Origin: Odoribacter sp. OttesenSCG-928-L07
GTDB taxonomy: Bacteria; Bacteroidota; Bacteroidia; Bacteroidales; BM520
NCBI GenBank assembly: GCA_030265965.1
Contig: JAJDHA010000001.1
Location: 1 to 63,393, forward strand
Direction: 5' to 3'
Length of the DNA stretch: 63,393 bases
Shown here: positions 10,398-34,136 of the stretch, piece after piece
How the letters are laid out: every line of letters starts with the position of its first letter
Position numbering within the stretch: the stretch's first letter is position 1
Program-made: the position numbers and the translations under genes
The notes under the pieces: generated by a model
Databases searched by the model: none
What the model saw: only the letters and a program-made list of their open reading frames with translations
Told to the model about the DNA's origin: nothing

Positions 10398-10521
10398 TAA
10401 TATAAATATTAATATTGAATGTCAATATATTATAATTTATATATTATTTCATCTTAAAAATAATGAGTTTTGTTTCGTCTAAAATGTGTTACTTTGCATT
10501 TAATATATTTTTCAGTCTTTT

Positions 10522-12213: not shown

Positions 12214-12418
12214 TTTAAAGTATTTACATACAAGCAAATTAGTCATATAAATAATACTTTTTCAAAACAGAATCCTTTTATGCTTTTTTAATTAATTTAC
12301 AATTTTCAAACCGATTTTCTTTATTACCTTTGTCAATTGTGTTAATTTGTTGTGGCTTAACTACAATTTACACAAGGTTAAAACGTTATATTCAAGAAAA
12401 AAATGAAAAAATAATTTT

Positions 12419-13900: not shown

Positions 13901-13905
13901 TTATT

Positions 13906-15420: not shown

Positions 15421-15437
15421 AAAAATAAATTTCACTT

Positions 15438-16997: not shown

Positions 16998-17149
16998 TAT
17001 TAATGAATCTTAATTTTCTTTGCTTGTTTTTTCAAAAAACAAACCAATCAAACCATTGTTAATCAAGATTGTAAAATTTGTTAACATTTATTAACATTTT
17101 TTATTGAAAAAACTTGTCACAAAATCAAATTTATTTATACCTTTGTCAA

Positions 17150-17295
17150 GTTCTTTTTTTTGTATTTACAATGTGGTTGGTCGTCAGTTCGTCCCTTCCT
17201 TTTAGTTCCTAAAATAATGTGTGTATATATTTACCCCCCCTTTAGAAACGACCAACCCATTAAAGGTAGAAGCGATTGCTTCTACCTTTTTTTTT
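17150..17295 (+). ncRNA. Candidate standalone small RNA
   Basis: Promoter TACCTTTG 17138-17145; stem GGTTGGTCGT (17175-84)/ACGACCAACC (17248-57); terminator 17262-17295; pgi has its own promoter after it. Confidence 0.6.
17262..17295 (+). terminator. Rho-independent terminator
   Basis: AAAGGTAGAAGC-GATT-GCTTCTACCTTT followed by T run. Confidence 0.85.
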
Positions 17296-17315
17296 GTATA
17301 TTTGCCAAAAAAATT

Positions 17316-18605: not shown

Positions 18606-21372
18606 TAATTCTTTTCGGCACAAAAATAAATTTTTTGACCTCTTTACCTTCAGTCCATTTTTGCGCTTCAGGAGTTGCGAGAACTATTTTTTCAACCTCA
18701 TCTTGACTTAATGTTAAAGGTAAATTAATTTTAAATCTAACTTTTCCATTAAACGAAACAGGATATTCAAAACTATCTTCATGAACATATTTTGCATCGA
18801 AAACAGGATATGCTGCATATTCAACCGTTGTGTCATGTCCCGACAATTGCCATAATTCTTCTGCAATATGCGGTGCGTAAGGCGAAATTAAAACGGTAAG
18901 TTCATCTAAAATTTTTCTTTTATTACATTTTAACTCTGATAATTCATTTACTGCAATCATAAAACTTGCAACAGCCGTATTAAAAGAAAAGTTTTTAATA
19001 TCGGTTTCAACCTTATTGATTGTTTTATGTAAAACCTTCAACTCTTCTGCGGTTGGCTCTTCATCAGAGAGAATAAAGTTGTTATCTCTATCATGATATA
19101 ATCTCCACAATTTTTTCAAGAAACGAAATACACCTTCTATTCCGTTGGTATCCCATGGTTTATGCGATTCCAATGGTCCCAAAAACATTTCGTAGAGACG
19201 TAAAGTATCTGCGCCGTATTTTTCAACCAAGTCATCAGGATTTTGCACATTGAATTTCGACTTCGACATTTTTTCGATTTCCCAACCGCAAATGTATTTT
19301 CCATCTTCTAAGATAAATTCTGCACTTGCGTTTTCGGGACTTTGTTTTTTGAAAGCTTCAATATCGAGTTCATCATTTTTTACAATATTAATATCGACGT
19401 GCAAAGCAGAGGTGTCATAATCATTTTTCAGATTCAAAGAAACATATTTATTTGTGCCGTTTATACGATAAACGAAATTCGAACGTCCTTGTATTTTACC
19501 TTGATTGATAAGTTTTTGATACGGTTCCTCAGTAATAGCCACACCAATATCGAACAAAAATTTATCCCAAACACGCGAATAAATCAAATGACCTGATGCA
19601 TGTTCGTCGCCGCCCAAATACAAATCTACATTAACCCAATAACTTGCAGCTTCTTTTGAAACCAACTCATTATTGTTTTTCGAATCCATGTATCTCAGAT
19701 AATAAGCGCTTGAACCTGCAAATCCGGGCATTGTATTTACTTCTAAGGGATAACCTTTGTAAGTCCAATTTTTAGCGCGCGCCAAAGGAGGTTCGCCGCT
19801 TTCAGTCGGTAAAAACTTATCAACTTCCGGCAATTCCAAAGGCAAATCCTTTTCATCCATTGCGTAAGGAATTCCATCTTTATAATAGATTGGGAACGGT
19901 TCGCCCCAATATCTTTGTCTGCTGAAGATTGCATCACGAAGACGATAATTGATTTTTCCTTTACCGACATTCATCTCTTCAAGTTTTTTCACAACTGTAG
20001 AAATTGCTTCTTTCACATTCATTCCAGTAATAAATCCGGAGTTAATAATCACACCATCTTTAGAATCATAAGATTCTTCCCAAGTTGAAGTATCTTTTGG
20101 CTCATCGCCGGGAGCACAAACAACTTGTAAAACAGGAAGTCCGAAATGGCGAGCAAAAGCAAAATCTCTACTATCATGACCCGGAACAGCCATTATTGCG
20201 CCGGTTCCATAACCAGAAAGAACGTAATCGGCAATCCAAATTGGAACTTTTTCGTTTGTCAACGGATTTATTCCGTAAGCTCCGGTAAATACTCCGCTCA
20301 CAGTTTTAACTTCCGTCATTCTTTCGCGTTCGCTACGATTTTTAGCGTAGGTAACGTATTCTTCAACTTGAGCTTTGTTTTCAGGTTTAGTGATTATATC
20401 GACATAATCGTGTTCAGGAGCAAGTACCATAAAAGTTGAACCCCAGAGAGTATCAGGACGGGTTGTGAAGATTTCCAACTTCATATCAGGATGATTTTCA
20501 ATACCGAAGAAAACAGTTGCGCCTTCGGAGCGACCAATCCAGTTTCTTTGCATTTCTTTTAGGGATTCAGACCAATCGACAGTATTGAGTCCGTCGAGCA
20601 AACGTTGAGCGTAAGCTGTAATTCTCAAAATCCATTGCTGCATCTTTTTTCTTTCCACAGGAAATCCGCCTCTTTCAGATAATCCGTTGATTACTTCATC
20701 ATTAGCCAAAACAGTTCCGAGAGCAGGACACCAATTAACCCAAGTTTCAGCCAAATAAGCAAGACGATAATTCATAAGAATTTCTTGTTGTTCTGCTTCC
20801 GATTTAGAGTTCCACTCATCGGCGGTAAACGACATTGGCTCAGTACAAGCCAAATCCAAATCTTTTGTTCCTTGCAATGAAAAGACTTCGACAAGCTCAT
20901 CAATTGGCCGCGCACTATTCGCCTGATTGCAATAATAAGAATTAAATAATTGAATAAAAACCCATTGAGTCCATTTGTAATATTTCGGGTCAGAAGTTAC
21001 AACTTCTCTATCCCAGTCGAAAGAAAAACCAATTTTATCAAGTTGTTCTCTATATCTTTTGATATTTTTTTCGGTAGTAATAGCAGGATGTGTTCCTGTT
21101 TGGATTGCGTATTGTTCTGCAGGAAGTCCGAAAGCATCATAGCCCATCGGGTGCAACACATTAAAACCTTTGTGGCGCATAAATCGCGCATAAATATCCG
21201 AAGCAATGTAACCCAAAGGGTGACCGACATGCAAACCTGCTCCCGAAGGATAAGGAAACATATCAAGCACATAATATTTTTTCTTATTATTATCTATTTC
21301 CGTTTTAAACGTTTTATTTTCAGCCCAATACTTTTGCCATTTTTTTTCTATTTCCGAATGTTTATATTCCAT
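18586..21372 (-). CDS. leuS: Leucine--tRNA ligase
   Basis: [44 protein letters not shown]. Confidence 0.98.
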
Positions 21373-21398
21373 AAAAGCAATTATTCTAATTAAAAATT

Positions 21399-21980
21399 TT
21401 ATTTGTGTTGATTAATATATTGTTGAATTTGACTTTCAATAACTTTAGGGTAGCACTCATATTCAAGAACATGAATTTTTTGTGCTAATGATTCTGCTGT
21501 ATCATCATTTTCAACATTACATTTAGCTTGAAAAATGATTTTACCTTCATCATAAATATTGTTCACATAATGAATTGTAATTCCCGATTCTGTTTCCTTA
21601 GCATCAATTACCGCATTATGAACATTAGTGCCGTACATTCCTTTTCCGCCGAATTTTGGCAGAAGCGCAGGATGAATATTAATGATTTTATTTGGGTATG
21701 CATCCACAATAAAATCCGGAACTAAGAGAAGGAATCCTGCGAGGATAATGAATTCGATTTCATTTTCTTGAAGAATTTTGAGAACACCTTCGCTATCTTT
21801 TAATTCTTTTGGTGAAAAAACGACGCAGGGAATATTCAACTTTTTTGCTCTTTCGATAACGTAAGCATCATTCTTATTTGTAAGAAACAACTTAACATTA
21901 ACCTTAGGATTTCCTTTAAAATAATTTGCGATATTTTCAGCGTTAGAACCATTTCCGGATGCGAATATTGCGATATTCAT
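21399..21980 (-). CDS. purN: Phosphoribosylglycinamide formyltransferase
   Basis: [28 protein letters not shown]; promoter at 22005-22012. Confidence 0.96.
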
Positions 21981-22020
21981 TGCTATTAAAAATTAAATTA
22001 GCTGCAAAGATAGGATTTTC

Positions 22021-22052
22021 AGTTGAAAGTTGGGAGTTGAGGGTTGAAAGTT
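22021..22052. repeat. Tandem heptamer array (left island border)
   Basis: AGTTGAA-AGTTGGG-AGTTGAG-GGTTGAA-AGTT. Confidence 0.75.
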
Positions 22053-22122
22053 TTTTGGATAAATCTTTTTTTGAGTCGATTTATTATTTTAAATTTACTT
22101 TACTGTTATAAAAAACTAATAA

Positions 22123-25100
22123 CTATTTATTTCTTTTAAAATTCTCCGCTTGTTCAAAAATTTCCACATAAACTTCATCGCGTTCCACAGGAGGATATCC
22201 GTATTCATCTAACAATAATATCAAACCAACTTTCAATGCAGATTTAATATCATCGCGTTTATTCCAATCAGGGTATTTCGCTTGTGAATCTACAAGGTTT
22301 TTTACTCCTTTAGCTAATTCAATCATTTTATCATCAGGGTAAGTAAAGTCATATTTAGTACACAATGATTTGAGTATGTCGTAAAAAGCCTTTTCTTCGA
22401 AATCAATACCCATTGCATCACCTGCGGAAAACTCTTTATGAACTTCCCAAATCAAATTGGTTAGCTGTTCCGCTATTTCTTCATAAACTTCACTTCTTAA
22501 AATATCGTTTGCATCTCGCTGATTGTATCGTTCCACCAAACTCTCCATTTTTTTACTGAAGTCGATCCCTTTCATGCGGTTTACCTTTTTCAGTTCTCCG
22601 ATTACTTTCGCCAACAGCTTTTGGAGCAGCTTGATTTTTGTATTGGGCAGCTTTATCTTATCTATCTTTGCCAAATAATCTTCATCGAAAATGTCTTGTT
22701 CAGTTTCATCTTCCGAACCCATTTTGAAGAGTTCTTCCACGCCGTCACTTATCAAAGCGTCTTTTATCATTTCCTGCACTTTGGCATTCATCTGTGCTGT
22801 ATCGGGAGCATCGCCTTTGGTCAATTTAAAAACGATAGAACGAACAGCCAAATAGAAGTGTGTATAATCTCGTTCTTCCTGCGTGAGTTGTTCGCTGCCG
22901 GTGCAAATATCATACGCTGCTTTCAGGCGTTTCACCAAATCCATAAAACGAGTTTCAAATTCTTTGGTGCACTGTATATATTCAGCGGCTTTGTTCAAAC
23001 AGTTCAATTGTTCCAATGTACCACCTGAGAAATAAGCTGAGCTATCGAATTTGTGAAACAGTTTTGTCAACAGATCCAAATGATCTTTTACCACCACAAG
23101 CGACTGGGTGATATCTTCAAAATTATCTTTGTCGCCTTTATTGTAGTGAGCCAAAGCAAGGTTCATTTGTTTCTTGATTCCGATATAATCGACCACCAAA
23201 CCTTTGTTTTTACCTTCAAACTTACGATTTACGCGCGAAATCGTTTGTATCAGATTGTGTTGTTGTATCGGCTTATCAATATAAATGGTATCGAGAAACG
23301 GCACGTCGAAACCTGTGAGCCACATATCGACCACAATGGCAATTTTGAAGTTTGACTTTTCATTCTTGAATTGTCGGTCGAGTTCTTTACGATACTCCTT
23401 TGTTCCCAATAAATCATATAACTTTTTGTCGTCGTCTTTATTGCGAGTCATCACAAGTTTGATACGTTCCATCGGTTTCAACTCACGTTTGTCTTTATCG
23501 GTAAGTTCAACACCCTCTTCCGCGAATCGGACTTCTCCCCATTCAGGACGAAGCGCCAGTACCTTTTTATAAAAATCGTAGGCGATAGTACGATTGCTGC
23601 ACACAAACATGGCTTTACCTTTTACCGAAGAACCTTCAGAAATACGATTTTCGTAGTGTGTAACAAAGTCTTCGGCTAATGCCTGCAAACGGTCAGGATC
23701 GCCAAGAATAACATGTAATCGGGCAGACTCTTGTTTACTTTTCTCTATTTGATATTCGTTTGCTCCTTCTTCGGCTACATCGTTATAATATTGTTCTATT
23801 TTTTGTAGTTCGCTGTTATTCAAAACTACTTTGGCAGCCCGTCCTTCATATACAATGCGAACGGTAATTTCATCGCGAACTGATTCGGTCATAGTATAGG
23901 CATCCATCACTTTACCAAACACATCGAGTGTGGCATCGATGGGAGTACCAGTGAATCCTACATACACTGCGTTTGGCAATGAATCGTGCAGGTATTTGGC
24001 AAATCCGAAAGTTTTGGATACACCTTTCTCGCTTATTTTTATTTTTTGGTCCAGATTGGTTTGACTGCGATGGGCTTCGTCCGAAATACAAATTACATTT
24101 TGACGGTCAGTTAATAATTCGGTATCCTCGGTGAACTTATGAATAGTGGTTAGAAAAACGCCGCCGCTTTCACGTCCTTGCAACAATTCACGCAAATCAT
24201 TTCGACTTTCAACACTAATGACATTATTGTCTCCAATGTATTGTTTGGCATTGGTAAATTGTCCGGCTAATTGGTCGTCCAAATCGGTACGATCGGTAAT
24301 CAATACAATGGTAGGGCTGCCAAAGTATTCGCTTTTCATCAATAGCCGGGTAAGGAAAAGCATTGTATAACTTTTCCCGCAACCTGTTGCCCCAAAATAA
24401 GTACCACCTTTTCCATTTCCAAACGGTTTTTGAGCCTGTTTTATGTTGTCATATAGTGCTCGAGCCGCGTAATATTGCGGATAGCGACAAACTATTTTCT
24501 CGTTCTTTTTCGATGAATCTGGAAAGTAAACGAAGTTTCGCAGTACATCCCGCAATCTATTTTTCTGGAACATACCTTGAACCAAGGTATACATAGAATC
24601 TATGCCATCCACATCTTTATTCATGCCGGCAATGCGTCGCCATGCATAGAAGAAATCGTAAGGAGCGAAAAACGAACCTACTTTGTTGTTTATACCATCG
24701 CTGATTACACAAAAAGCATTGTATTTGAACAGTTCGGGAATATCACGTTCGTAACGGACAGTCAACTGTGTATAAGCATCGTGAATGGTAGTATCTTCTC
24801 GAATGGCACTTTTGAATTCGAAAACCACCAAAGGCAAACCATTGATATATAGAATGCCATCAGGAATGCGTTTTTCCGAACCTTGAATTTCCAACTGAGT
24901 TATAAAGCGGTAGATATTTGCATCCGTTTTGTATTCAGCTTGTGGTTCAGCGACAACGGAAATTAGTTCTTCGGCAGTGTAAGTCTGATTCTCCAATCCC
25001 GAATAATCAATCAGCTGGATATAAACATCTTTATGCGTATGATCTTCACGTTTGAGAATAAATCCATCGGACAACATTTTCATAAAATGTTTATTGCTCT

Positions 25101-25329
25101 CGTACAGATCAGAAGCGGGAAGCGATTTCAGCTCCAACAGAATAGATTTGATTTCCGTATCGGTAATACCGTGATTAGCATAACGCTTTTTCAGGAAATT
25201 GCACAAATCGTCTTCTATCAGTACTTCATCAGGCTGGCGGGTAAGCGTATTGCCCAAGCAATGCGGATAACCTTCTTGTGAAAGAAGTTCGGCAAATGCT
25301 TGTTCGAGTTTGGCTTCGGTGAATTTCAT
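22123..25329 (-). CDS. hsdR: Type I restriction enzyme subunit R
   Basis: RIPDGILYINGLPLVVFEFKS nuclease motif, ATGCGKS, DEAHR, FTGTP, MWLTGFD, QTISRVNR. Confidence 0.96.
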   Translation of the reverse strand: MKFTEAKLEQAFAELLSQEGYPHCLGNTLTRQPDEVLIEDDLCNFLKKRYANHGITDTEIKSILLELKSLPASDLYESNKHFMKMLSDGFILKREDHTHKDVYIQLIDYSGLENQTYTAEELISVVAEPQAEYKTDANIYRFITQLEIQGSEKRIPDGILYINGLPLVVFEFKSAIREDTTIHDAYTQLTVRYERDIPELFKYNAFCVISDGINNKVGSFFAPYDFFYAWRRIAGMNKDVDGIDSMYTLVQGMFQKNRLRDVLRNFVYFPDSSKKNEKIVCRYPQYYAARALYDNIKQAQKPFGNGKGGTYFGATGCGKSYTMLFLTRLLMKSEYFGSPTIVLITDRTDLDDQLAGQFTNAKQYIGDNNVISVESRNDLRELLQGRESGGVFLTTIHKFTEDTELLTDRQNVICISDEAHRSQTNLDQKIKISEKGVSKTFGFAKYLHDSLPNAVYVGFTGTPIDATLDVFGKVMDAYTMTESVRDEITVRIVYEGRAAKVVLNNSELQKIEQYYNDVAEEGANEYQIEKSKQESARLHVILGDPDRLQALAEDFVTHYENRISEGSSVKGKAMFVCSNRTIAYDFYKKVLALRPEWGEVRFAEEGVELTDKDKRELKPMERIKLVMTRNKDDDKKLYDLLGTKEYRKELDRQFKNEKSNFKIAIVVDMWLTGFDVPFLDTIYIDKPIQQHNLIQTISRVNRKFEGKNKGLVVDYIGIKKQMNLALAHYNKGDKDNFEDITQSLVVVKDHLDLLTKLFHKFDSSAYFSGGTLEQLNCLNKAAEYIQCTKEFETRFMDLVKRLKAAYDICTGSEQLTQEERDYTHFYLAVRSIVFKLTKGDAPDTAQMNAKVQEMIKDALISDGVEELFKMGSEDETEQDIFDEDYLAKIDKIKLPNTKIKLLQKLLAKVIGELKKVNRMKGIDFSKKMESLVERYNQRDANDILRSEVYEEIAEQLTNLIWEVHKEFSAGDAMGIDFEEKAFYDILKSLCTKYDFTYPDDKMIELAKGVKNLVDSQAKYPDWNKRDDIKSALKVGLILLLDEYGYPPVERDEVYVEIFEQAENFKRNK

Positions 25330-25330
25330 A
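25319..25330. repeat. 12-bp direct repeat, copy at hsdR start
   Basis: GTGAATTTCATA; identical copy at 26600-26611. Confidence 0.7.
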
Positions 25331-25335
25331 CGGCT

Positions 25336-26355
25336 TTATTCTTTATCGTTATTTTCCGACTGTTCTTTTAACTCTTTGATTGCCCTATCGAAATCGCTTT
25401 CGTATTGCAACATTTCTTTTCGACGATATTCTTCAAATTCTTGTGTTGCTTTTTCTATGGCTTGTTTGTGTGAAATAGTCCCTGCATTATTGAGCAAAGG
25501 ACGGTTGCCTACCATCAGAATATTATCTAACTTTTCAATCCATTGCTGCATGGTCATAGCTTGTTGTTCTAAGGCTTGCAATTCAGCAAAATCAAGATAC
25601 TGAGATACTAACAAATTCAAGACTTGCAACTCTTTTTCCGAAAGATAGTTTTTTGCAATTTTTACATCATCGCGCGTTATGTAATCGCCTTTGAAATTGG
25701 TCATGCCCACCATGGGTTTTTCGGAATCTACCCGCTGATAAATAACCTCAGCCGCTGTATGTTGATGAGCGGCATAGTGCATTTTATTCTGAACGGTTGC
25801 AAAAAACGATCTAGTAACATCTGAGTTTGGATCATAATCAATCGCAGTAGCATAAATATCAGTTACTTGTTGATATAGATTGCGTTCGCTGGAACGAATA
25901 TCCCGAACACGTTGTAACAGTTCCCGAAAATAACGATTTCCATTCCCTTTCAATCGCTCATCGTCCATCGTAAATCCTTTTTGGATATATTCGTGCAGAC
26001 GTTGTGTTGCCCATTGCCGAAATCGTGTAGCCACTTGGGATTTCACACGATAACCGATGGCGATAATCATATCTAAATTATAGTTTGGAATATTCCGTTT
26101 TACAGAACGCTTACCTTCCGTTTGAACCTGTAAGAAATTCTTACAAGTTCGATCTTCCTGTAATTCAGCTTCTTGGTAGATATTTCGGATATGCTGCACA
26201 ATATTCTCGCGCGTTGTATCAAACAGCAAAGCAATCTGCTGTTGCGAAAGCCAAACATCTTGACCATCAAAACGGACATTGACATTTGTTATCCCATTGT
26301 CGTCTTGATAAAGAACGAACTGACTATTTGAGGGTTGAGGGTTATTGTTTGACAT
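25336..26355 (-). CDS. RhuM-family (virulence RhuM-like) protein
   Basis: VWLSQQQIALLF, YNLDMIIAIGYRVKSQVATRFRQWAT, RDIRSSER, QNKMHYA, AKNYL. Confidence 0.9.
   Translation of the reverse strand: MSNNNPQPSNSQFVLYQDDNGITNVNVRFDGQDVWLSQQQIALLFDTTRENIVQHIRNIYQEAELQEDRTCKNFLQVQTEGKRSVKRNIPNYNLDMIIAIGYRVKSQVATRFRQWATQRLHEYIQKGFTMDDERLKGNGNRYFRELLQRVRDIRSSERNLYQQVTDIYATAIDYDPNSDVTRSFFATVQNKMHYAAHQHTAAEVIYQRVDSEKPMVGMTNFKGDYITRDDVKIAKNYLSEKELQVLNLLVSQYLDFAELQALEQQAMTMQQWIEKLDNILMVGNRPLLNNAGTISHKQAIEKATQEFEEYRRKEMLQYESDFDRAIKELKEQSENNDKE
26125..26149. repeat. In-frame palindrome in rhuM
   Basis: AAC-CTGTAAG-AAATT-CTTACAA-GTT (one mismatch); encodes TCKNFLQV. Confidence 0.85.
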
Positions 26356-26459
26356 TATTGAATTATTTTAATTATACTGTACCATTTCTCTTGTTCTTCG
26401 TCCCAGATGGTACGAACTTTCTTTTCTTCGAATGGCTTTATGGATTCTTGGTTGGGCAT
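26355..26459 (-). pseudogene. Bro-N-family 5' remnant (34 aa)
   Basis: MPNQESIKPFEEKKVRTIWDEEQEKWYSIIKIIQ*, resembling the Bro-N start FEEKKVRTVWDEEQEKWYFS; stop overlaps rhuM ATG (TAATG). Confidence 0.7.
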
Positions 26460-26496
26460 GCTACACGCGGATTTATAAGTTTTGAAATAACTATTT

Positions 26497-26622
26497 CTAT
26501 TTTGGAACAGTTGCTTTATTTTCCAATCGAGCTTCTACTTTTACAGCTCCGCTGTCGGATTGGTAAAGAAGGATTTCGCCTTTTGAGGGATTGAATTTAG
26601 TGAATTTCATATTCTTCTTCAT
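26497..26622 (-). pseudogene. RhuM-family 5' remnant (41 aa)
   Basis: MKKNMKFTKFNPSKGEILLYQSDSGAVKVEARLENKATVPK*; EILLYQ..G..KVEARLE parallels QIVIYQAADGTTKLEVRLKE of 30330..31328. Confidence 0.7.
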
Positions 26623-28575
26623 TTATTGAAAATCATCTGGTAAATACTGTTTGTATTTCTCTTCAAGTAGAGATAGTGCATCTTCATTTGTTTGAAGATT
26701 TAAATTTAACTTATCTTTTATATACTTGTATTTTGATCTTGCTGTTTGAATTATGTCGCTCCAACGAAGGATAAACACATTTACATGTTCTGATTCTATA
26801 ATGTGACCATAACGTCTGTGTTGCTGCTCTACGCTTGTTTTTAATTCATCTTTAATGTCTCTTGTTAATAAAATAAAAGTCCATTTAGTTTTTTCTTTGG
26901 GAAATCGAGCATCATTACTGACTTTAGCAGCATAAGATTCTATTTGTGTTTTTTCAGGAAACCCTGCATCTTTAATTGGTCGTTTTAATTCAATTACCAA
27001 ATTTTCGTAATAATCAGCTTTTCCTAAATTGTATTGTTTCCATAGACATACATCAGGAATCGTTTCTAATTCTGAATTATCTTCAGAATTTACCACTTCT
27101 TCGAAATCATCTCGTCCTAAATCTTTTAGATATTGTTTTAGAACATTTTTAAGAGTTAAATCATCCGCACCATAAGTATAATCATCACCAAAAATCCAAG
27201 TTTCATTCACTACAATTTTGTGTAAATGCTTTCTCTCTTTTACTTTTTTTGAATGTTCAGGATCATATATAAGCAATTCTAATCCGCTTAGAAAATCAAG
27301 CCTATCTGTCACTAAACGCATAGTGTCAATCATATTCTCCAAAGAAGTTTTCTCTAACAATTCAGCCAACTCTTCTTTCTTATCGTCAGGCAATCCTATA
27401 ACTTCAGTGAGAATCTTTTGCAAACTAGCAGTGTTTGTCTCTAATGCCTCTTTAACTAAAGACAATGTTAATTTCTTGCTTATATTATCTTGTTCACTAA
27501 AAGAAGGTAGATATTCATTTATTTGAAGAGCAACTATATCAAAAACTTGGCGTTTTGCTATTTCAACATTTCCTTTTGCTTCTTCGTGATAGGGATATAA
27601 ATTTGACATTTTAAGATCTTCTATAAATTCTTTAGAATAATAGTGCAATCTTTTTCTGACATATTCTCGTGCTATTTTTTTACTTTGTTCAACGACTTTT
27701 ACTAACTCTGGATTAGCCTCAGCTAAATTTAATTCATTTTGTCTATGTAAAGATTCAATATATATTGATTGAATAAAAATTGAAATCGGCAAACTTGAGC
27801 GTATCCCAAGCGTGGCTTCAAGAAATGGAATTCCTTTTTCATTACATAAATATGTTTTCCTTTTATTCTCAAATTTCCATTCTATTATTTTAATTTCAAA
27901 TTTATACGTCAGGTTATTAATATCTGTTTTTATTATTTCCGTATATTGATTTTTTATAAGGTTGTCAAAATCTAATTTTTTATTGTTAATATATATTTGA
28001 AAATATGGATAACTTAAGTAATACAAAGCAAATCTTTCTTCTAGTTCTCTGAAATTATCTTTTAAAAAAACTTCATTTGCAATTTTATCATTGATATTGT
28101 TGATTGTGACCTTAAATCCCTTTTTCATGCCATTAACAGTCTCAATGTCGCTTAATTTAGGATTTCGAAGACTATTTTTATCAATAGCAACAGTAAAATG
28201 ATTAGAAAAATCATCTATGATCTGATAACTATCGAAATGCACCAGATCTCCAAGAGCTAAAGCTTTATACCTGCCTTTTCCTTCCTTGCCATGATAAACC
28301 CTTCCTGCAGGACTAACATTATTTTGTTTCTTATCTGAGCCTCCAAGTTTTTGAAAGACATCTTCTGCTAATTGATAAGATAATCCAATACCATCATCTT
28401 CTATAGATATGTACTCGTATTTGCCAAGTACATTTTTCTCAAAATTTATTCTTATTTCATTTGCATCAGCATCAAGAGAATTCCAAATTAACTCTGAGAT
28501 AGCATTGATTCCATTAGATCTTGTTAAAGACTCAATGTGATCCTGCTGGACAATTATTTCTAATTCCTTTGACAT
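26623..28575 (-). CDS. GHKL (HATPase_c/MORC-like) ATPase fused to C-terminal PD-(D/E)xK nuclease
   Basis: ELIWNSLDA (N-box), DDGIG (G1), GKEGKGR (G2); C-terminal IPDVCLW...VIELKRP. Confidence 0.8.
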   Translation of the reverse strand: MSKELEIIVQQDHIESLTRSNGINAISELIWNSLDADANEIRINFEKNVLGKYEYISIEDDGIGLSYQLAEDVFQKLGGSDKKQNNVSPAGRVYHGKEGKGRYKALALGDLVHFDSYQIIDDFSNHFTVAIDKNSLRNPKLSDIETVNGMKKGFKVTINNINDKIANEVFLKDNFRELEERFALYYLSYPYFQIYINNKKLDFDNLIKNQYTEIIKTDINNLTYKFEIKIIEWKFENKRKTYLCNEKGIPFLEATLGIRSSLPISIFIQSIYIESLHRQNELNLAEANPELVKVVEQSKKIAREYVRKRLHYYSKEFIEDLKMSNLYPYHEEAKGNVEIAKRQVFDIVALQINEYLPSFSEQDNISKKLTLSLVKEALETNTASLQKILTEVIGLPDDKKEELAELLEKTSLENMIDTMRLVTDRLDFLSGLELLIYDPEHSKKVKERKHLHKIVVNETWIFGDDYTYGADDLTLKNVLKQYLKDLGRDDFEEVVNSEDNSELETIPDVCLWKQYNLGKADYYENLVIELKRPIKDAGFPEKTQIESYAAKVSNDARFPKEKTKWTFILLTRDIKDELKTSVEQQHRRYGHIIESEHVNVFILRWSDIIQTARSKYKYIKDKLNLNLQTNEDALSLLEEKYKQYLPDDFQ

Positions 28576-28582
28576 GTTTTTT

Positions 28583-29776
28583 TTAATTTTTTATTGTTGC
28601 CATCTTCGAAAGAAGTAGCGATTGTAATTCTTTTAACTTTTTATCTTGTTCAGCAAACAGCTCTATATTTTTATCAAGAATAGATATAGTGTCTTCAAAT
28701 AGTTGAATAGTTTTATTGTTCGGAATGATAATTTTACTCTGATATAACGCCTCTTTTGTTATTGAGCCAAATATTGTTCCTTCGTCATTAGACACATCAA
28801 ATTCATTTCTAATTGCTAACATCAAATGAAAAAGAAATGAATTGTGTTTTGTTTTGCTATTCAAAGAGGCAATACCTCGACCAATTGCACAATCATTCTT
28901 TGTTATATTCAAGTCTCCTACTGGAGCTCTCACACTCATTAATATATCTCCCTTTTTAGCTCTTTTTTTAGGTTCAGTAGTGTAAGTTGTTATATCAGGA
29001 AATCTTATTCCAAAGTCTGTTCGCCCCTGATAAAATATCATCCCATTTCCTTCGGAATTATACGACTCACCTTCAGGTGACTGTCCCATAATGATATTTG
29101 CAATATCCGACAAAGCTCCCACTCTCCACCCCCTCGGAATCTCCCCCAACTCACTATCCACCATTTCGCCACCCGAACTTTTATACGACTTCCCGTCTTC
29201 ATTTGGAAACTCAAAATCCACAAACCACTGCTTGTAAATAGCCTGTGCAGTTTCTTCGAGTTTTTGTATCAGTTGGTTGTTGAGGTCTATACGACGTTGC
29301 ACGGCATTGTATTCGGCTACTATCTCGCGTTGTTTTTCGGGAGAGGGAATGGGGAGTTCAGTATTGCACAATTCTTCCCAATCAAACATTTCCCTAACGC
29401 TTCCATGACTTCTGAAACGAGCATATCTGTCAAACTCGGGACGCCGAAACCACATCATTAGATACTCAGGAAGAAGGCTTTCTGTGTCAGTAATTTCAAA
29501 AACAGTATATGCTTGAGAAACTAATGCCGTACCTCCATTCGCATACATTGCAATACCAATTTTGTCTCCTCTTCGAGAAGTGTCTGGGATATATGTGAAT
29601 TGAGTGTTTCTTACTGTTTTGTATTTTGTAAAGTCAGTTCCAACAGTATTTGCTACAGATTTAATAAATTCTTTTGACACAGAAACACCAAGTAGATTGT
29701 CTTCCCGTCCTTCAAGATTCCGCACATCCACTTCCCGAATATAATCACCCAATCGTTTATAATTGCTCATTCTCAT
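28583..29776 (-). CDS. hsdS: Type I R-M specificity subunit S
   Basis: Two TRDs around conserved LPIPSPEKQREIV...LEETAQAIYKQWFVDFEFP...ELGEIPRGW; ends LKELQSLLLSKM. Confidence 0.93.
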   Translation of the reverse strand: MRMSNYKRLGDYIREVDVRNLEGREDNLLGVSVSKEFIKSVANTVGTDFTKYKTVRNTQFTYIPDTSRRGDKIGIAMYANGGTALVSQAYTVFEITDTESLLPEYLMMWFRRPEFDRYARFRSHGSVREMFDWEELCNTELPIPSPEKQREIVAEYNAVQRRIDLNNQLIQKLEETAQAIYKQWFVDFEFPNEDGKSYKSSGGEMVDSELGEIPRGWRVGALSDIANIIMGQSPEGESYNSEGNGMIFYQGRTDFGIRFPDITTYTTEPKKRAKKGDILMSVRAPVGDLNITKNDCAIGRGIASLNSKTKHNSFLFHLMLAIRNEFDVSNDEGTIFGSITKEALYQSKIIIPNNKTIQLFEDTISILDKNIELFAEQDKKLKELQSLLLSKMATIKN

Positions 29777-30323
29777 CTCTCAATTTTATGAACTCATTTT
29801 CTATTTCTTCTATCGTTGGTAAGCTATCTTTCAATTCTTTGGGCAAATGCTCGGTAATTTGAAATTCGCTTACTCCCATAGGTTTGTTTATATCGCGTAA
29901 TGAAAACTCGACTTCAATGCTATTCTTTTCGCGGCACAGTAAAATGCCAATCGTTTGTTGTCCGACAAAAGCAAATCCTTTACCTAATTCCAATGGAATT
30001 TTTGTAACGGGTTGTTGCACAATTTGTCCAACAGGTTGTTGGATTAATTTATCGTGATAGAAAACATAGAATTGCTTGCAATAAAATAAGTTACTCCTTG
30101 ATAAACCTTTCATGTCAGGAAATTCTGATTGCAGATCTTTAGCCGCCTGCTCTATCAGTTTATTACCCCACACGTTCTCTTTTTCGGAAATCATTTTGCC
30201 TAATTCCCAATAAAATTCAATCAATGCAGAATTGACAGCAATAGCTGCCTTAATTTGCGTTGAACGAATTTTGGTTTTTAGCTCTAAAATCCATTTTTTA
30301 TAACTGTTATCGGATATATTCAT
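29757..30323 (-). pseudogene. Internally deleted YhcG/DUF1016 protein (ORF still open)
   Basis: N-domain AVNSALIEFYWELG...WG...DLQSEFPDMKGLSRSNL joined to LELGKGFAFVG and then TIGILLC...LPTIEEIE; central region and nuclease motif missing. Confidence 0.75.
30003..30049. repeat. Tandem pair of in-frame hairpins in YhcG remnant
   Basis: TCCAACA-GGT-TGTTGGA (30027-43) and degenerate TGTAACG-GGT-TGTTGCA (30003-19), period 24 nt; encodes IQQPVGQI-VQQPVTKI. Confidence 0.75.
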
Positions 30324-30329
30324 ACCGCC

Positions 30330-31328
30330 TCAATTGTTTTTATTAATCAGATTGACTACTAATTTTACCATCACATCTTTCTCTTCCGAGCGGCTTTCGG
30401 CAATCATCAGGGTTAAAGCTACTAATGTATTGTTTTCAATCAACCTTGTTCCATCGGGCTTGTAAAGGATTCCGTTTTTCTCTAAAAACCAAAGGAACAG
30501 AAAAGCTGCAATCCGCTTATTCCCATCGCTGAAAGAATGATTTTTGGTTACTAAGTACAAGAGCATTGCCGCTTTTTCTTCAATACTTGGATAAAGTTCT
30601 TTACCATCGAATGTTTGATAAATGGTATTGATTGAGCTATGAAACGATCCGTCTTTTTCATTACCAAACAAGGAGCTTCCGCCAAATTTTTTGTGTAATA
30701 TAGAAATCGCCTCTTTTGCATTTTCGTAAGTGGCTCGAAAATCCTCTTTTGTAGTGGTTTGTTCGATACTCAACTGTTTATAGTCATATTTATCCAATGT
30801 ATCTAAAGCATACGTGTAATCACTTATCACTTGCAAGAGACCTGTAGCTTCGTCTGCCGATAGTTCTTTGCTTTGCAAAACATTCGATAGTAGTTTGACG
30901 GTTAGTTTCAGGTCGTTGTATTGTTGCAATTGTATCTTGTTATTAACGGCATAGCCTTTTACAAGATACTCTTTTAAAATACGGTTTGCCCAAATGCGGA
31001 ATTGAATTCCTCTGCTTGACTTTACTCGATAACCAACAGACAAAACCATGTCCAGACTATAAAATTCTATATTTCTTTCAACTTCTCGATCCCCTTCTTT
31101 TTGAACTGTCGCAAAATTTGCGACAGTTGGAATTTCAGCCAACTCTTCCTTTAAAGCATTATTAACATGCTTCCCTATTGTTTTAACATCCCTATCAAAC
31201 AATTCAGCCATCTGCTGACGATTGAGCCATACGGTTTCTTCTTTCAGCCTCACTTCCAACTTTGTAGTCCCATCGGCAGCCTGATAAATAACTATCTGAT
31301 TATCATCAACCATCTTTTCATCTTTCAT
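30330..31328 (-). CDS. RhuM-N + Fic/Doc fusion protein
   Basis: ETVWLNRQQMAELF, YSLDMVLSVGYRVKS..GIQFRIWAN; Doc-type motif HSFSDGNKR. Confidence 0.9.
   Translation of the reverse strand: MKDEKMVDDNQIVIYQAADGTTKLEVRLKEETVWLNRQQMAELFDRDVKTIGKHVNNALKEELAEIPTVANFATVQKEGDREVERNIEFYSLDMVLSVGYRVKSSRGIQFRIWANRILKEYLVKGYAVNNKIQLQQYNDLKLTVKLLSNVLQSKELSADEATGLLQVISDYTYALDTLDKYDYKQLSIEQTTTKEDFRATYENAKEAISILHKKFGGSSLFGNEKDGSFHSSINTIYQTFDGKELYPSIEEKAAMLLYLVTKNHSFSDGNKRIAAFLFLWFLEKNGILYKPDGTRLIENNTLVALTLMIAESRSEEKDVMVKLVVNLINKNN
31104..31128. repeat. Perfect in-frame palindrome in rhuM-fic
   Basis: AACTGTCGCAAA-A-TTTGCGACAGTT, 12-bp perfect arms; encodes TVANFATV. Confidence 0.9.
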
Positions 31329-31343
31329 TGTTTAGCCTCTTTT

Positions 31344-32954
31344 TTATTCAATACCATATCCCAATTCTTTAAACACTTTAATCAATTCCAGTTTCGATTG
31401 TTCTTCGGCTTGCAACAATTCTTTAAACTCGGCTTGTAATGTTTTCATCTTTTCGTCGAAGTCGATATTCTCATCACGATTCTTAAAAGCAATGTATTTG
31501 CTCGGAACTAAGGAAAAATCTTTTGCTTCTACTTCTTCATGCGAAGCTGAATAGCAATATTCAGGGATATTGAAAACTTCACGTTGAGACGCACGGCCGT
31601 GTTGAGACGCACGGCCGTGCGTCTCTATCGTAGCGGTCTGCCAATCGTGATAGGTTGCTGCAACCCGTCTGATATCTTCTATTGAAAATTGAGTAAACTT
31701 CTTCTCAAAGGGTTCGCCCATTTGGCGCAGGTCCATAAACAAGATTTCGCCTTTGCGGTGGCGATAGTTGCGGATTTCATCGCCTACCTGTACGGTTCGT
31801 TGGGTCTTATTTCGGTTCAATATCCAAAGTGTAACGCTAATATCGGTTGTATAAAACATATTTCGAGGCAAAACCAAAATCGCTTCCACCAAATCATTTT
31901 CAATCAGTTTTCGGCGAATTTTATATTCTTCACCTCCACCGCTTAATGCACCATTGGCAAGAATAAAACCTGCTACGCCGTTTTCAGAAAGTTTGCTTGC
32001 CATATTGAGAATCCAGCCGTAATTGGCATTGCTTTTGGGCGGCACATCGTAGCCACGCCAACGCGGATCGTCAATCAGTTCATCTTCGGCTCGCCAGTCT
32101 TTTTGGTTGAATGGCGGATTTGCCATAATGTAATCGGCTTTCAGGTCTTTGTGTTGGTCGTCTGAAAACGTATTGGCGGCTTTCGCTCCCAAATTGGCGG
32201 AAATACCCCGAATGGCAAGATTCATTTTTGCCAGTTTATAGGTGGTATTGGTGTATTCCTGTCCGTAAATGGAAACTTCGCGTTTGTTACCGTGATGACT
32301 TTCGATAAATTTAATGGATTGTACAAACATGCCACCTGAACCGCAAGCAGGATCGTAAATGATACCCTTGTAAGGTTCAATCATTTCGGCAATCAGGTTT
32401 ACAATACTTTTGGGCGTATAAAACTCTCCTTTCCCTTTTCCTTCCGCTAAAGCGAATTTTGAAAGGAAGTATTCATATACACGTCCAACAATATCCTGCT
32501 CTTTATCTTTTAGGGTGTTTATCTCACTGATTTCATCAATCAACGAAGCCAGTTTGGATGATTCCAAACCTAAGCGAGAGAAATAATTATCGGGTAATGC
32601 CCCTTTCAGGCTTTTGTTGTTTTTCTCTATGGTATGGAGAGCAGTGTCGATAATCAGAGCCAAATCGTCTTGTTTGGCTTTTTCTTTGATGTAATTCCAA
32701 CGTGATATTTCTTCGAGAAAAAACACATTGCTCATGTTGTAGAATTCGGGCATCTCTACGTACTTCTCTTTTCCGTCGGCAATGAGCTTAGATCTGTGTT
32801 CCTCGAACTTATCACTGACAAATTTCAGGAATATCAACCCCAACACCACATGTTTGTATTCCGAAGGCTCAACACTTCCACGCAATTTGTTTGCCGACTC
32901 CCACAGACTTACCTCTATTGGTTTTTCTTGTTTTTCATTTGCTTTTTTAGCCAT
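31344..32954 (-). CDS. hsdM: Type I R-M N6-adenine methyltransferase subunit M
   Basis: LWESANKLRG, GEFYTP, YDPACGSGGMF, ANPPFN; promoter TACCTTTG at 33080-33087 (minus). Confidence 0.96.
   Translation of the reverse strand: MAKKANEKQEKPIEVSLWESANKLRGSVEPSEYKHVVLGLIFLKFVSDKFEEHRSKLIADGKEKYVEMPEFYNMSNVFFLEEISRWNYIKEKAKQDDLALIIDTALHTIEKNNKSLKGALPDNYFSRLGLESSKLASLIDEISEINTLKDKEQDIVGRVYEYFLSKFALAEGKGKGEFYTPKSIVNLIAEMIEPYKGIIYDPACGSGGMFVQSIKFIESHHGNKREVSIYGQEYTNTTYKLAKMNLAIRGISANLGAKAANTFSDDQHKDLKADYIMANPPFNQKDWRAEDELIDDPRWRGYDVPPKSNANYGWILNMASKLSENGVAGFILANGALSGGGEEYKIRRKLIENDLVEAILVLPRNMFYTTDISVTLWILNRNKTQRTVQVGDEIRNYRHRKGEILFMDLRQMGEPFEKKFTQFSIEDIRRVAATYHDWQTATIETHGRASQHGRASQREVFNIPEYCYSASHEEVEAKDFSLVPSKYIAFKNRDENIDFDEKMKTLQAEFKELLQAEEQSKLELIKVFKELGYGIE
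31583..31625. repeat. REP-like palindrome with tandem partial duplication inside hsdM
   Basis: Perfect 22-bp palindrome GAGACGCACGGCCGTGCGTCTC (31604-25); 18-nt unit GTTGAGACGCACGGCCGT repeated twice. Confidence 0.85.
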
Positions 32955-33140
32955 TTCTCACATCTATTCTTTATGATCAAAAAAATATACTAATTTACAA
33001 TCTTATAACAATAATATTAAAGTTTCCACGAGAGACTGATATTACTATTGCAAGCTGAATAATGAATTTAATTCGGCACCAAAGGTAAGAAATTTTATTG
33101 AATTTTTAAGCATTGCTCCTATTTTACATTGTGTCAAAAA

Positions 33141-33173
33141 CAATTTTCAACTTTCAACCCTCAATTTTCAATT
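33141..33173. repeat. Tandem heptamer array (right island border)
   Basis: CAATTTT-CAACTTT-CAACCCT-CAATTTT-CAATT; 33149-33164 is the exact reverse complement of 22037-22052. Confidence 0.75.
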
Positions 33174-33203
33174 AAATAAACTATCTTTGCAAAAAATTTT
33201 TCG

Positions 33204-34136
33204 ATGTCAAAAAATGTAAATATTTTTGCGGGTCGTTCTTCCGAGTATCTTGGCAGACAAATAGCTGAAAAGTATGGTACTACTTTAGGCAATGTAATTT
33301 TTGATGTTTTTTCTGATGGCGAATTTAAGCCTTCATTTGAACAAAACATTAGAGGAAATTCTGTGTATATTGTTCAATCTACTTTTCCACCAGCTGATAA
33401 TTTGTTGGAATTGTTAATGCTTGTTGATGCTGCTCGTAGAGCTTCTGCAAAACATATAGTAGCTATCATTCCTTATTTCGGTTATGCTCGTCAAGATAGA
33501 AAAGATCAACCGCGAGTTCCTATTACATCAAAACTTATAGCAAATCTTCTTACAGCTTCTGGGCTTGATCGTTTGGTTACTTTAGATTTACATGCCGATC
33601 AAATTCAAGGTTTTTTTGATATCCCTGTTGACCATTTATATGCGTCTTCTGTTTTTGTTCCGATTATTAAAGATTTAGGGCTTGAAGATATTACATTTGC
33701 TTCGCCTGATGCAGGTGGAACAAAAAGAGCAGCTTCTTATGCAAAAGCTTTCGGTACCGACTTTGTAATGTGTTACAAACAAAGATCTAAACCAAATGAA
33801 ATTGAAAAAATGGCTCTTATCGGAAACGTGAAAAATAGACACGTTTTACTTTTAGACGATATGATTGATACCGGAGGAACTATTACAAAAGCAGCAAAAT
33901 TAATCAAGAGCAAAGGGGCAAAAAGCGTTATGGCTTTTGCAACTCACGCTGTTTTATCCGGAAATGCATATAAGAGTATCGAAAAATCTGTTTTTAACAA
34001 AATATTCTTAACGGATTCAATTCCTTTAAGGGAAAATTCTTCTAAAATAGAAATTGTACCAACTGCGGATTTATTCGCACAGGTCATACATAAAATTGAA
34101 AATTGCGAATCAGTAAGTTCACTGTTCGAATTCTAA
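33204..34136 (+). CDS. prs: Ribose-phosphate pyrophosphokinase
   Basis: FSDGE, PYFGYARQDRKD, DLHADQIQGFF, SPDAGG, DDMIDTGGT; promoter TATCTTTG 33182-33189. Confidence 0.97.
   Translation: MSKNVNIFAGRSSEYLGRQIAEKYGTTLGNVIFDVFSDGEFKPSFEQNIRGNSVYIVQSTFPPADNLLELLMLVDAARRASAKHIVAIIPYFGYARQDRKDQPRVPITSKLIANLLTASGLDRLVTLDLHADQIQGFFDIPVDHLYASSVFVPIIKDLGLEDITFASPDAGGTKRAASYAKAFGTDFVMCYKQRSKPNEIEKMALIGNVKNRHVLLLDDMIDTGGTITKAAKLIKSKGAKSVMAFATHAVLSGNAYKSIEKSVFNKIFLTDSIPLRENSSKIEIVPTADLFAQVIHKIENCESVSSLFEF

Follow-up and report, generated by a model that had tools for sequence, protein, structure and literature searches.

How do small defense genes come to lie between the core genes of a type I restriction-modification (R-M) operon, and why do some of them carry a palindrome inside their own coding sequence? 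Both questions are raised by an operon in the DNA analyzed here, a stretch of 63,393 nucleotides from Odoribacter sp. OttesenSCG-928-L07 (the window; contig C1, positions 1-63393, of a 1.67 Mb genome in 117 contigs that is 74% complete), in which hsdM, hsdS and hsdR are interspersed with RhuM, Fic, YhcG, GHKL and Bro-N genes or their remnants. The initial annotation of this operon proposed that the passengers are minimal cassettes that move without an integrase, the internal palindrome being their cis site. The explanation we favor, to which we assign a probability of roughly 0.6, is a different one: the two slots between the core genes (hsdM-hsdS and hsdS-hsdR) would constitute a recombination hotspot for small defense genes, cargo would be gained or replaced by recombination anchored in the conserved hsd genes, and the palindromes of the RhuM and YhcG genes would be selected elements intrinsic to those genes.

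Organization of the operon

A single co-directional operon occupies the minus strand between purN (21399-21980, minus strand) and prs (33204-34136, plus strand), in the order hsdM, RhuM-N::Fic, YhcG remnant, hsdS, GHKL, RhuM remnant, Bro-N remnant, RhuM, hsdR. It encodes HsdM, HsdS and HsdR together, as a type I system does (Pfam, PADLOC): the first gene, hsdM, specifies the methyltransferase subunit (31344-32954; Pfam N6_Mtase, 5e-100, and HsdM_N; PADLOC MTase_I), hsdS the specificity subunit (28583-29776; Pfam Methylase_S; PADLOC Specificity_I) and hsdR the restriction subunit (22123-25329; Pfam; PADLOC REase_I).

The hsdM-hsdS slot contains a RhuM-N::Fic/Doc fusion (30330-31328), in which Pfam finds Virulence_RhuM at positions 2-107 together with Fic and which PADLOC assigns to PDC-S23, followed by a YhcG/DUF1016 remnant (29757-30323). 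On alignment the latter retains three homology blocks with two in-frame internal deletions, and its profile matches are partial, covering positions 1-92 of 137 in DUF1016_N (PF17761) and 109-157 of 157 in YhcG_C (PF06250); because the block that holds the PD-(D/E)xK catalytic core of the nuclease is deleted, we regard this unit as a remnant and not as a functional member of the family. In the hsdS-hsdR slot, a GHKL ATPase (HATPase_c_3) protein of 650 amino acids (26623-28575; Pfam), with relatives at 25-30% in the same slot of two related loci (L155 and L217), is followed by a RhuM N-terminal remnant of 41 amino acids (26497-26622; residues 9-36 align to RhuM residues 5-32 by hhalign against the RhuM alignment, probability 91.5%), a Bro-N/DinD-like remnant of 34 amino acids (26355-26459; it matches the N-terminal end of the L155 Bro-N protein with 65% identity, E 1e-10) and a full-length RhuM gene (25336-26355; Pfam 5e-109; PADLOC PDC-S05), the last cargo before hsdR. 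The stop of the Bro-N remnant overlaps the start of this RhuM gene (TAATG), and in L155 the Bro-N homologue is itself the last cargo preceding hsdR. Against the RhuM profile PF13310 (cut-off 33.7) the full-length gene scores 363.9 bits and the fusion 88.7 bits, the latter in its N-terminal part only.

The gene map bears out the first description of six passengers or remnants fitted tightly between the core genes. The successive junctions, in operon order, measure +15, +6, -20, +7, 0, +37, -1 and +6 nucleotides, seven of the eight being at most 20, and Pfam detected no recombinase or transposase domain in the 14 open reading frames (ORFs) of 18.5-35.7 kb, again as originally stated. The classes PDC-S05, PDC-S23 and PDC-S02 (YhcG) are all filed by PADLOC as phage-defense candidates. 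That genes of the RhuM, Fic, YhcG and Bro-N types travel with type I R-M systems agrees with published accounts, whose available portions describe RhuM-like, Doc and GHKL "paraMORC" genes in R-M loci (PMC3710099) and DUF1016, dinD plus RhuM, and Fic genes located between type I core genes (PMC9881135). Contigs from an RNA library match the window exactly over portions of hsdM, RhuM-Fic, the YhcG remnant, hsdS, the RhuM/hsdR junction and hsdR, which does not in itself prove transcription.

Palindromes in RhuM coding sequences

Five palindromes with a score of at least 9 occur in the region, as compared with 1.07 +/- 0.77 (maximum 2) in 30 Markov-1 randomizations. The palindromes of the operon represent three unrelated things: an element of RhuM genes, an element of YhcG genes, and a repeat inserted in hsdM that is treated separately below. 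The initial annotation had reported internal palindromes in both RhuM genes and in the RhuM and YhcG remnants. The first part of this stands: the palindrome of the full-length gene (26124-26150) has 13-nucleotide arms with one mismatch (T.G) and a 1-nucleotide center, and that of the RhuM-Fic fusion (31104-31128) has perfect 12-nucleotide arms, also with a 1-nucleotide center. As to the second part, the 41-residue RhuM remnant has no palindrome, and the inverted repeats of the YhcG remnant (30021-30049 and 30212-30272) are not significant by themselves (randomization; fold z -1.64).

The RhuM element is a property of the family. Each of the six RhuM-type genes of the host genome has a near-perfect palindrome with 10-15-nucleotide arms at the same codons, and the sequences differ. 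In a set of 144 genes, made up of 90 from 80 loci in many phyla together with the six of the host, 31 from 30 further Bacteroidota genomes, 20 from viral contigs and three from plasmids, a palindrome was found at the homologous position in 140 (89/90, 29/31, 20/20 and 2/3, respectively, the plasmids being proteobacterial and campylobacterial), and it is retained across phyla down to approximately 35-40% protein identity. Its mean score is 10.2, compared with 4.9 after synonymous resampling (1.9% of resamples reach the observed value) and with 4.1 for 978 windows elsewhere in these genes, the highest of which scores 9.

That the pairing itself, and not a particular sequence, is what is kept is suggested by the pattern of substitution in 103 distinct 41-nucleotide segments, for which 500 shuffles served as control. 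Paired cells amounted to 84.5% as compared with 68.1% in shuffled alignments, and covariation to 0.493 as compared with 0.173, neither value being reached in any of the 500 shuffles; controls slid along the alignment gave 0.07-0.11, and double changes were seen in 11 of the 14 pairs. At one pair, where both bases are mostly synonymous third positions, complementarity is seen in 103/103 segments (GC 81, AU 17, CG 5), and RNAalifold yields the same helix. Even the amino acids co-vary as the bases dictate (T-V, C-H/Q, A-A, R-R, K-L), and most mismatches are located where pairing would require a stop codon. A type I R-M gene is the immediate neighbor in only 4 of the 80 RhuM loci (140 of 142 neighboring ORFs scanned), and because the palindrome is kept where R-M neighbors are so few, the element belongs to the gene and not to the operon.

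No solved structure was found by sequence for either RhuM or YhcG. In an AlphaFold model of RhuM (mean pLDDT 76) the palindrome is predicted to encode R69-Q78, the first strand of a beta-hairpin (E71-80/E83-92), which is preceded by a helix-turn-helix (H38-44, H49-61). The best Foldseek match of this model, a weak one, is Deinococcus DdrC (E 1.2e-3, probability 0.99), a DNA-binding protein of the DNA-damage response; with a TM-score of 0.20-0.29, a root-mean-square deviation of about 19 A and 11% identity, the match is a lead and not a fold assignment.

Several further observations concern RhuM genes. Short N-terminal ORFs of about 85-103 amino acids that keep the palindrome and stop 8-25 codons later occur in four loci (L072 10001-10234, L166 2782-3027, L044 4258-4527 and L107 8207-8480); two of the four end right after the motif DGKNY, and these ORFs may be a distinct short form and not debris. 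In L043, L044, L055 and L057, RhuM genes 83-85% identical to that of the window are followed by a TOTE-type archaeo-eukaryotic primase-helicase gene, which may be a second recurrent partnership, and tandem pairs of RhuM genes are frequent (L045, L080, L081, L108). On all three plasmids (L371, Roseomonas; L372, Neotabrizicola; L373, Aliarcobacter) RhuM overlaps the end of a type I hsdM by 4-8 nucleotides. Contig C24 of the host genome (12851-25508) has one RhuM and two YhcG genes within 13 kb and may harbor another defense island. Inspection of E. coli DinD by eye revealed no RhuM-type motif. A LexA site has been described at a "rhuM" gene in PMC3998124. We dropped a LexA site as the identity of the RhuM palindrome, which does not fit the Gram-positive LexA box.

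A second palindrome in YhcG/DUF1016 genes

The LSWSH motif has an invariant W, and the YhcG element lies immediately 5' of its codon. Among 95 distinct segments, 70 score at least 8, and in 64 the best palindrome is centered on the same nucleotide; in the first set of genes a score of 8 was reached by 16 of the 542 windows taken as background and by 32 of the 1290 sequences resampled with synonymous codons. Here too the arms change together (500 shuffles), with 82.4% of cells paired compared with 58.1% in shuffled alignments, covariation of 0.550 compared with 0.159 (0/500), slid controls of 0.05-0.10 and double changes in 14 of 14 pairs. The consensus is (C)AATT-N7-CA[G/C]TG-N7-AATT(G). YhcG genes on viral contigs gave no matches in a scan with a single protein and were retrieved by an alignment-based scan.

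Some YhcG genes contain two palindrome units, and E. coli K-12 yhcG contains three in tandem (L370 6130-6156, ~6166-6198 and 6202-6240), encoding IHQTMSGEL, IPQTPSAEF and IWQTLSAKS. This array corresponds to approximately 3368129-3368239 of MG1655 (NC_000913.3), with arms of 13, 15 and 18 nucleotides, in the linker before the region equivalent to the conserved W. In the window, the repeat at 30021-30049 (11/13 pairs) in the YhcG remnant is probably a degenerate member of the family, judging from its position; a short way downstream of it the remnant's first internal deletion begins.

For both families, then, and across phyla, position within the coding sequence is fixed, sequence is variable, and symmetry is kept by compensatory changes that include synonymous ones. 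Strong palindromes are otherwise rare in operons of this kind. Five with a score of at least 10 occur in 174 kb of ORFs between core genes, three of them in RhuM-type genes and one in a YhcG gene, and one occurs in 168 kb of core genes (six per 342 kb overall).

Turnover of cargo among related operons

A metagenome scan with HsdM recovered 80 loci at 73-91% identity, in 42 of which both hsdM and hsdR are present. Six of these 42 operons consist of the core genes alone, with hsdS overlapping hsdM by 4 nucleotides and either ending 1-5 nucleotides before hsdR or overlapping it, and the other 36 contain one to seven co-directional cargo ORFs, placed in one or both of the two slots. Pfam was run on 101 of the 111 non-hsdS cargo ORFs (four short ORFs, and six ORFs of L185 and L194 that repeat those of L181 and L193, make up the difference). 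The families comprise TIR/SLOG/ThsB, Schlafen-AlbA_2/HATPase_c_4, AAA_13, AbiEi-AbiEii, GmrSD, SIR2-HerA, Shedu, AbiH, OLD-like ATPases, KAP, YobI, reverse transcriptase, PD-(D/E)xK proteins, RhuM, Fic, YhcG and a C5-methylase/GHKL/Mrr/Bro-N set. One transposase (IS1595) was present among the 101 ORFs, and otherwise no recombinase. Packing is tight, with 145 of 192 junctions at most 20 nucleotides and the last stop codon within -5 to +5 nucleotides of the hsdR ATG in 33 of the 42 loci.

Because 36 of the 42 differ in cargo, the relatives share no fixed gene set, a finding that would have spoken against traffic had it been otherwise. Public contigs aligned to the window at a likeness of at least 90, which come from related organisms of different strains, place the borders of the exchanged pieces. 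A 24-kb DNA contig that is about 92% identical in hsdR and hsdM has 3816 other letters in place of the segment from 25330 (the hsdR ATG) to 28584 (the hsdS stop), and in the same contig 50 letters separate 29761 from 31402, so that the YhcG remnant and RhuM-Fic are both absent. In a contig of another run 29762 is joined to 30320 with 10 letters between, and the YhcG remnant alone is absent. Joints with fewer than 30 letters on one side (26460 to 31600 and 31858 to 32113) were set aside, and most of 26.5-28.5 kb is uncovered and thus uninformative. The operon of L041 has in common with the window only RhuM and hsdR, at 78% nucleotide identity, beginning 4 nucleotides before the RhuM ATG. Cargo traffic is therefore real, and the borders of presence and absence are gene junctions. 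This sustains one half of the initial proposal, that of exchangeable units at gene junctions; the other half, in which palindromes are the cis sites, fares otherwise, as discussed below.

About 90 nucleotides upstream of the RhuM-hsdR pair of L041, a contig of a Tannerella metagenome-assembled genome, we also noted an ORF (699-1430) for an IS200-like Y1 transposase (Y1_Tnp, PF01797, 24.9 bits).

Relics of the hsdR start within the cargo

Members of the family share a conserved hsdR 5' end, ATGAAATTCACCGAAG, and in an alignment of the 42 loci the sequence upstream of the hsdR ATG is unrelated from one to another. In the window a second, 12-nucleotide copy of the hsdR start, TATGAAATTCAC, lies on the minus strand at 26600-26611, identical to 25319-25330, in agreement with the duplication first reported; after it come the RhuM remnant, the Bro-N remnant and RhuM. 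We searched for similar copies with the first 14 nucleotides of hsdR, allowing at most two mismatches and requiring the ATG start, over approximately 178 kb of cargo region. Copies were found inside the cargo of 11 of the 42 related loci and in the window (seed match at 26610). By a rough estimate, not a computed one, about one seed match would be expected by chance, compared with 15 found.

Eight relics in seven loci extend beyond the 14-nucleotide seed, and relic lengths overall range from about 12 to 114 nucleotides with differing stop points. Each length class precedes a different cargo type: relics of about 25-30 nucleotides stand before a Schlafen-type gene (L177, L193, L215), those of about 47-55 before an AbiEi-type start (L204, L206, L220), and one of at least 80, matching hsdR residues 1-38 by tblastn, before a GmrSD pair (L197); a relic of about 35 nucleotides occurs in L215. 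The Schlafen-AlbA_2 gene is the commonest last cargo before hsdR, and the relic that precedes it is the same in all three cases (L177 6869-6897, L193 14408-14435, L215 5482-5510); gene and relic seem to travel as one module.

Two routes by which cargo might enter would be anchored in the hsd genes. One would be two-sided homologous replacement. The other would be a one-ended event, homologous in hsdR and illegitimate slightly upstream, in which the donor supplies its own hsdR 5' end, an event of the kind defined as homology-facilitated illegitimate recombination in the accessible text of PMC3240628. Duplicates of the hsdR 5' end that vary in length, together with truncated upstream genes, match what is expected of the latter. 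Joints would survive only where the upstream gene stays intact, and the old hsdR start, by then redundant, would be a harmless place for one; selection would retain co-directional, tightly coupled arrangements, and old cargo would decay in situ. The scars of this process would be the hsdR-start relics and the truncated Bro-N, RhuM-N and YhcG genes.

Weighing the explanations

We propose that the RhuM and YhcG palindromes may be cis-acting nucleic-acid elements under selection, their likeliest forms being a DNA site with dyad symmetry, a cruciform or a hairpin, any of which would govern the expression or self-recognition of toxin-like defense proteins. We lean, tentatively and short of even odds, toward a symmetric site or cruciform at the DNA level. 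Complementarity extends up to the center, where a hairpin could not use it, and this favors either duplex symmetry (a dimer site or cruciform extrusion) or templated copying; in YhcG the synonymous third base of the innermost pair is A in 53 of 78 genes (68%), compared with a background of 27%. The same feature speaks against a role as mRNA hairpins acting in pausing or attenuation, decay, processing or translation, a reading that we hold to be doubtful though quite possible. Indeed, the 31-nucleotide segments fold with mean minimum free energies of -11.4 and -11.0 kcal/mol (-2.4 and -3.2 once shuffled), the z scores of hairpins in the window are -4.07 (RhuM 26124-26150, -15.7 kcal/mol) and -2.40, compensatory changes are observed, mismatches in RhuM stems are G.T more often than A.C (11 to 5), and the tandem hairpins of E. 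coli yhcG resemble RNA stabilizer arrays. On the other hand, YhcG stems lack such a wobble bias (G.T 8, A.C 10, in a subset of segments chosen for a centered palindrome), no U-tract follows the stems, and one strand folds as well as the other. Quasi-palindromes are known to undergo templated correction as a form of mutation, and fold-back copying by template switching might perpetuate functionless palindromes that are tolerated in a permissive protein segment. Symmetry that is perfect up to the center, a widely varying encoded peptide, and a unit repeated one to three times in the YhcG linker would all fit. We nevertheless consider this very unlikely, in view of the single homologous position in each family, the concentration of four of the six strongest palindromes of 342 kb in these two families, retention in nearly all RhuM genes across phyla, and the RhuM segment itself, which is modeled as a well-predicted beta-strand and not a loose linker.

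A more specific form of the DNA-level reading, in which RhuM and YhcG genes carry an in-frame dyad-symmetric site or cruciform recognized by their own product, is in our judgment rather unlikely. RhuM would read the site through its winged helix-turn-helix and YhcG through its nuclease domain, whose nearest kin, according to PMC1189080, are archaeal Holliday-junction resolvases. Each gene would in that case act as a switch that refers to itself, sensing DNA topology, replication or phage attack and setting the level or activity of a toxin-like defense protein. If the modeled RhuM fold is right, the palindrome would encode the wing strand, so that the site and the candidate DNA-contacting element would change together.

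As to how cargo moves, two-sided homologous recombination between allelic operons plus independent deletions might suffice, the relics then being chance matches or convergent starts (MKF...). The conservation of hsdM and hsdR is sufficient for flanking homology, Staphylococcus aureus defense islands are exchanged by homologous recombination after transduction according to the accessible portion of PMC12829572, and the seed matches in L151, L155 and L226 are weak. We find this unlikely, however, because the eight longer relics match hsdR for 25 to at least 80 nucleotides exactly at internal junctions, and because seed matches are so far above the estimated chance number. The integrase-free cassettes of the initial annotation, with the palindrome as cis site, insertion at junctions and remnants resembling miniature inverted-repeat transposable elements (MITEs), are the least credible of the readings weighed here, to the point of being highly improbable. 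They do account for varying gene content with borders at gene junctions and for the near absence of recombinases; the palindromes keep structure and not sequence, as integron attC sites do; and in a single case, that of the YhcG remnant, a partial second palindrome unit immediately precedes the first of the internal deletions. Most cargo families, however, have no palindrome, homology breaks at ORF borders or in the hsdR 5' end whereas the palindromes lie 200-300 nucleotides inside the ORFs, and the relics differ in length, contrary to a fixed site. RhuM short forms end at about residues 41, 45, 68+, 85, 88, 92 and 103, elsewhere than at the palindrome (residues 69-78); stand-alone RhuM genes keep the palindrome; and no solo copies of either RhuM-type palindrome of the window exist in the genome. 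The remnants, too, are decayed genes and not MITE-like, being single-copy and having neither terminal inverted repeats nor target duplications, and the one repeat seen beside them is the hsdR-start copy.

Recombination anchored in the hsd genes, with palindromes as gene-intrinsic elements, is itself open to several objections. Four of the 144 RhuM genes, including a high-GC Roseomonas plasmid gene, have no clear palindrome, and 25 of the 95 YhcG segments do not reach a score of 8. The shuffle counts overstate the significance of both palindromes, since the sequences compared are related and so lack independence. Within +/-1.5 kb the arm of a gene recurred 8 times for RhuM (12.5 expected) and 12 times for YhcG (4.6 expected), which we read as none beyond expectation, and Rfam 15 gave no family at the palindromes, with sub-threshold hits to symR at the hsdM repeat (E 0.33) and to mir-266 in E. 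coli yhcG (E 0.43). Concerning the relics, that of the window is only 12 nucleotides long, a length at which chance matches recur in 11 kb, and its position alone is telling; the matches in L151, L155 and L226 could be fortuitous or simply normal beginnings of genes; a relic length shared before a given cargo type may go back to one old event that later spread; and no donor-recipient pair was seen, the observed products being relics and truncated upstream genes. Finally, the insertion of the island itself cannot be defined by synteny because purN and prs are not neighbors in the relatives examined.

The repeat in hsdM and the borders of the operon

The palindrome in hsdM (31586-31625, GAGACGCACGGCCGTGCGTCTC) belongs to a genome-wide family, as the initial description of it as REP-like implied. 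It is an in-frame copy of a repetitive extragenic palindrome (REP) of the GTAG class, within an insertion at 31583-31625 that encodes THGRASQHGRASQ, carries an 18-nucleotide tandem duplication and lies in a variable linker. The genome has 22 CACGGCCGTG cores; the copies, mostly of the form GTAGAGACG-CACGGCCGTG-CGTCTCTAC (GTAG...CTAC), are extragenic for the most part, with few inside ORFs of at least 120 amino acids, and are thus short palindromes in many copies between genes, as REPs are. There is a gap at this site in 79 of the 80 HsdM relatives, and a related contig is 33 nucleotides shorter there. The RNA fold of the insertion has -38 kcal/mol (z -6.5). REPs with a GTAG tag have been defined, and found within genes in several species, in the accessible text of PMC3733652. 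We found no intact RAYT in the 74%-complete genome, the lone trace being a 31-amino acid tblastn fragment on contig C48. Low-complexity arrays with a 7-nucleotide period, such as GTCACAC/GTCACTT, often flank the REP copies (C27, C30, C37, C41, C47, C63 and others), and the copies also occur as tandem or partial units, with 3-5 of them on some contigs. Of two RNA-library contigs (run X1), one spans 30906-31129 and ends at the RhuM-Fic palindrome (31129), and the other spans 31624-32021 with one end at the REP (31624); these may be only assembly breaks at repeats.

Inverted heptamer arrays do stand at both borders, as had been noted, and a 16-mer, TTGAGGGTTGAAAGTT, has its sole occurrences there, at 22037 and, inverted, at 33149. 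They do not mark an island. There are 28 such arrays in the genome, 24 of them outside ORFs of at least 100 amino acids, most directly upstream of a TAnnTTTG box, which we take to be the Bacteroidota promoter consensus, and a gene start; because they occur across the genome they are not island markers, and the two at the borders look inverted because purN and prs diverge. They are upstream elements of the promoters of purN (array 22037-22052, box 22005-22012, minus strand) and of prs (array 33147-33164, box TATCTTTG 33182-33189, plus strand). Arrays of the form (CTTTCAA)n directly upstream of TAnnTTTG boxes are present at many genes (for example C30 67344-67368 and C41 11290-11314), and the combination looks like a strong, stereotyped promoter-upstream module in this host.

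The adjacency of purN and prs was absent from every relative examined. We located prs in 40 of 41 genomes, and in 10 relatives the 6-20 kb upstream of it contained no purN, hsd or other window gene. In four of five congeners purN is elsewhere; in G001 it follows homologues of the window ORFs at 7162-8881. In this closest congener (L231, G001) purN and leuS come directly after the homologues of ORFs 7162-7719 and 7676-8881 and share their strand, whereas in the window (7162-21980) purN-leuS is inverted and about 10 kb away, which places the R-M island at a rearrangement breakpoint.

Significance and comparison with known systems

The operon type and its cargo are already known. Two things appear to be new: relics of the hsdR start and, more importantly, the palindromes conserved in the coding sequences of two families; our searches of open-access text, which did not extend to subscription journals, brought up no description of the RhuM or DUF1016 palindromes or of the relics. 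Duplicated hsdR starts are readable scars, and they suggest that cargo enters without a dedicated recombinase, using a core gene as a one-sided anchor. In two widespread candidate defense families (RhuM, PDC-S05; DUF1016, PDC-S02) a coding palindrome appears to be kept by selection at the nucleotide level, base symmetry being preserved through co-varying codons, synonymous sites and even amino acids, and such elements are usually a sign of regulation or recognition. With its three tandem copies, E. coli K-12 yhcG is a ready laboratory model for the YhcG palindrome, and for RhuM a control search with Pfam gave a match in the cultivable Bacteroides thetaiotaomicron. Codon-optimized or otherwise recoded RhuM or YhcG genes in defense screens would lose it.

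Several known systems invite comparison. Integron cassettes are likewise promoterless single genes arranged head to tail, with palindromic sites that conserve structure over sequence. Here, in contrast, there is no IntI, the palindromes lie within the ORF and not at its 3' end, they are perfect and without extrahelical bases, and most cargo has none; junction sequences share no motif or palindrome that would correspond to an attC-type site at cassette 3' ends. The C-protein boxes of type II R-M systems are dyad-symmetric sites of about 25-29 bp next to or within defense genes, and in the RhuM model a helix-turn-helix precedes the palindrome. Unlike those boxes, the candidate sites described here are inside coding sequences, vary in sequence between genes and are not repeated in the vicinity. 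The hsdM repeat resembles GTAG-REP/RAYT systems, as far as the accessible text of PMC3733652 describes them, in being a 28-bp GTAG...CTAC palindrome with about 20 mostly extragenic copies, and differs in that the hsdM copy is in frame and partly duplicated and in the lack of an intact RAYT among the genes found.

With regard to the route of entry, the closest parallel is the displacement of effector-immunity modules of the Vibrio cholerae type VI secretion system, in which, in the available portion of PMC5361080, a conserved neighboring gene serves as anchor, modules enter beside it and fragments are left in arrays. Other genes and organisms are involved here, what is left as a scar is a second copy of the anchor gene's own 5' end, and the route is one that we infer. 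With regard to gene content, the operon is like the EcoPrrI type IC R-M locus with PrrC and like R-M operons with RhuM-like, Doc/Fic and paraMORC genes, in which defense or toxin genes lie between core genes (PMC12707154, PMC3710099); the accessible parts of these two accounts do not mention hsdR relics or coding palindromes. Unlike EcoPrrI-type loci as described there, this operon has multiple and partly decayed cargo, 36 of its 42 allelic counterparts differ, and relics of the hsdR start appear to record the entry of new genes.

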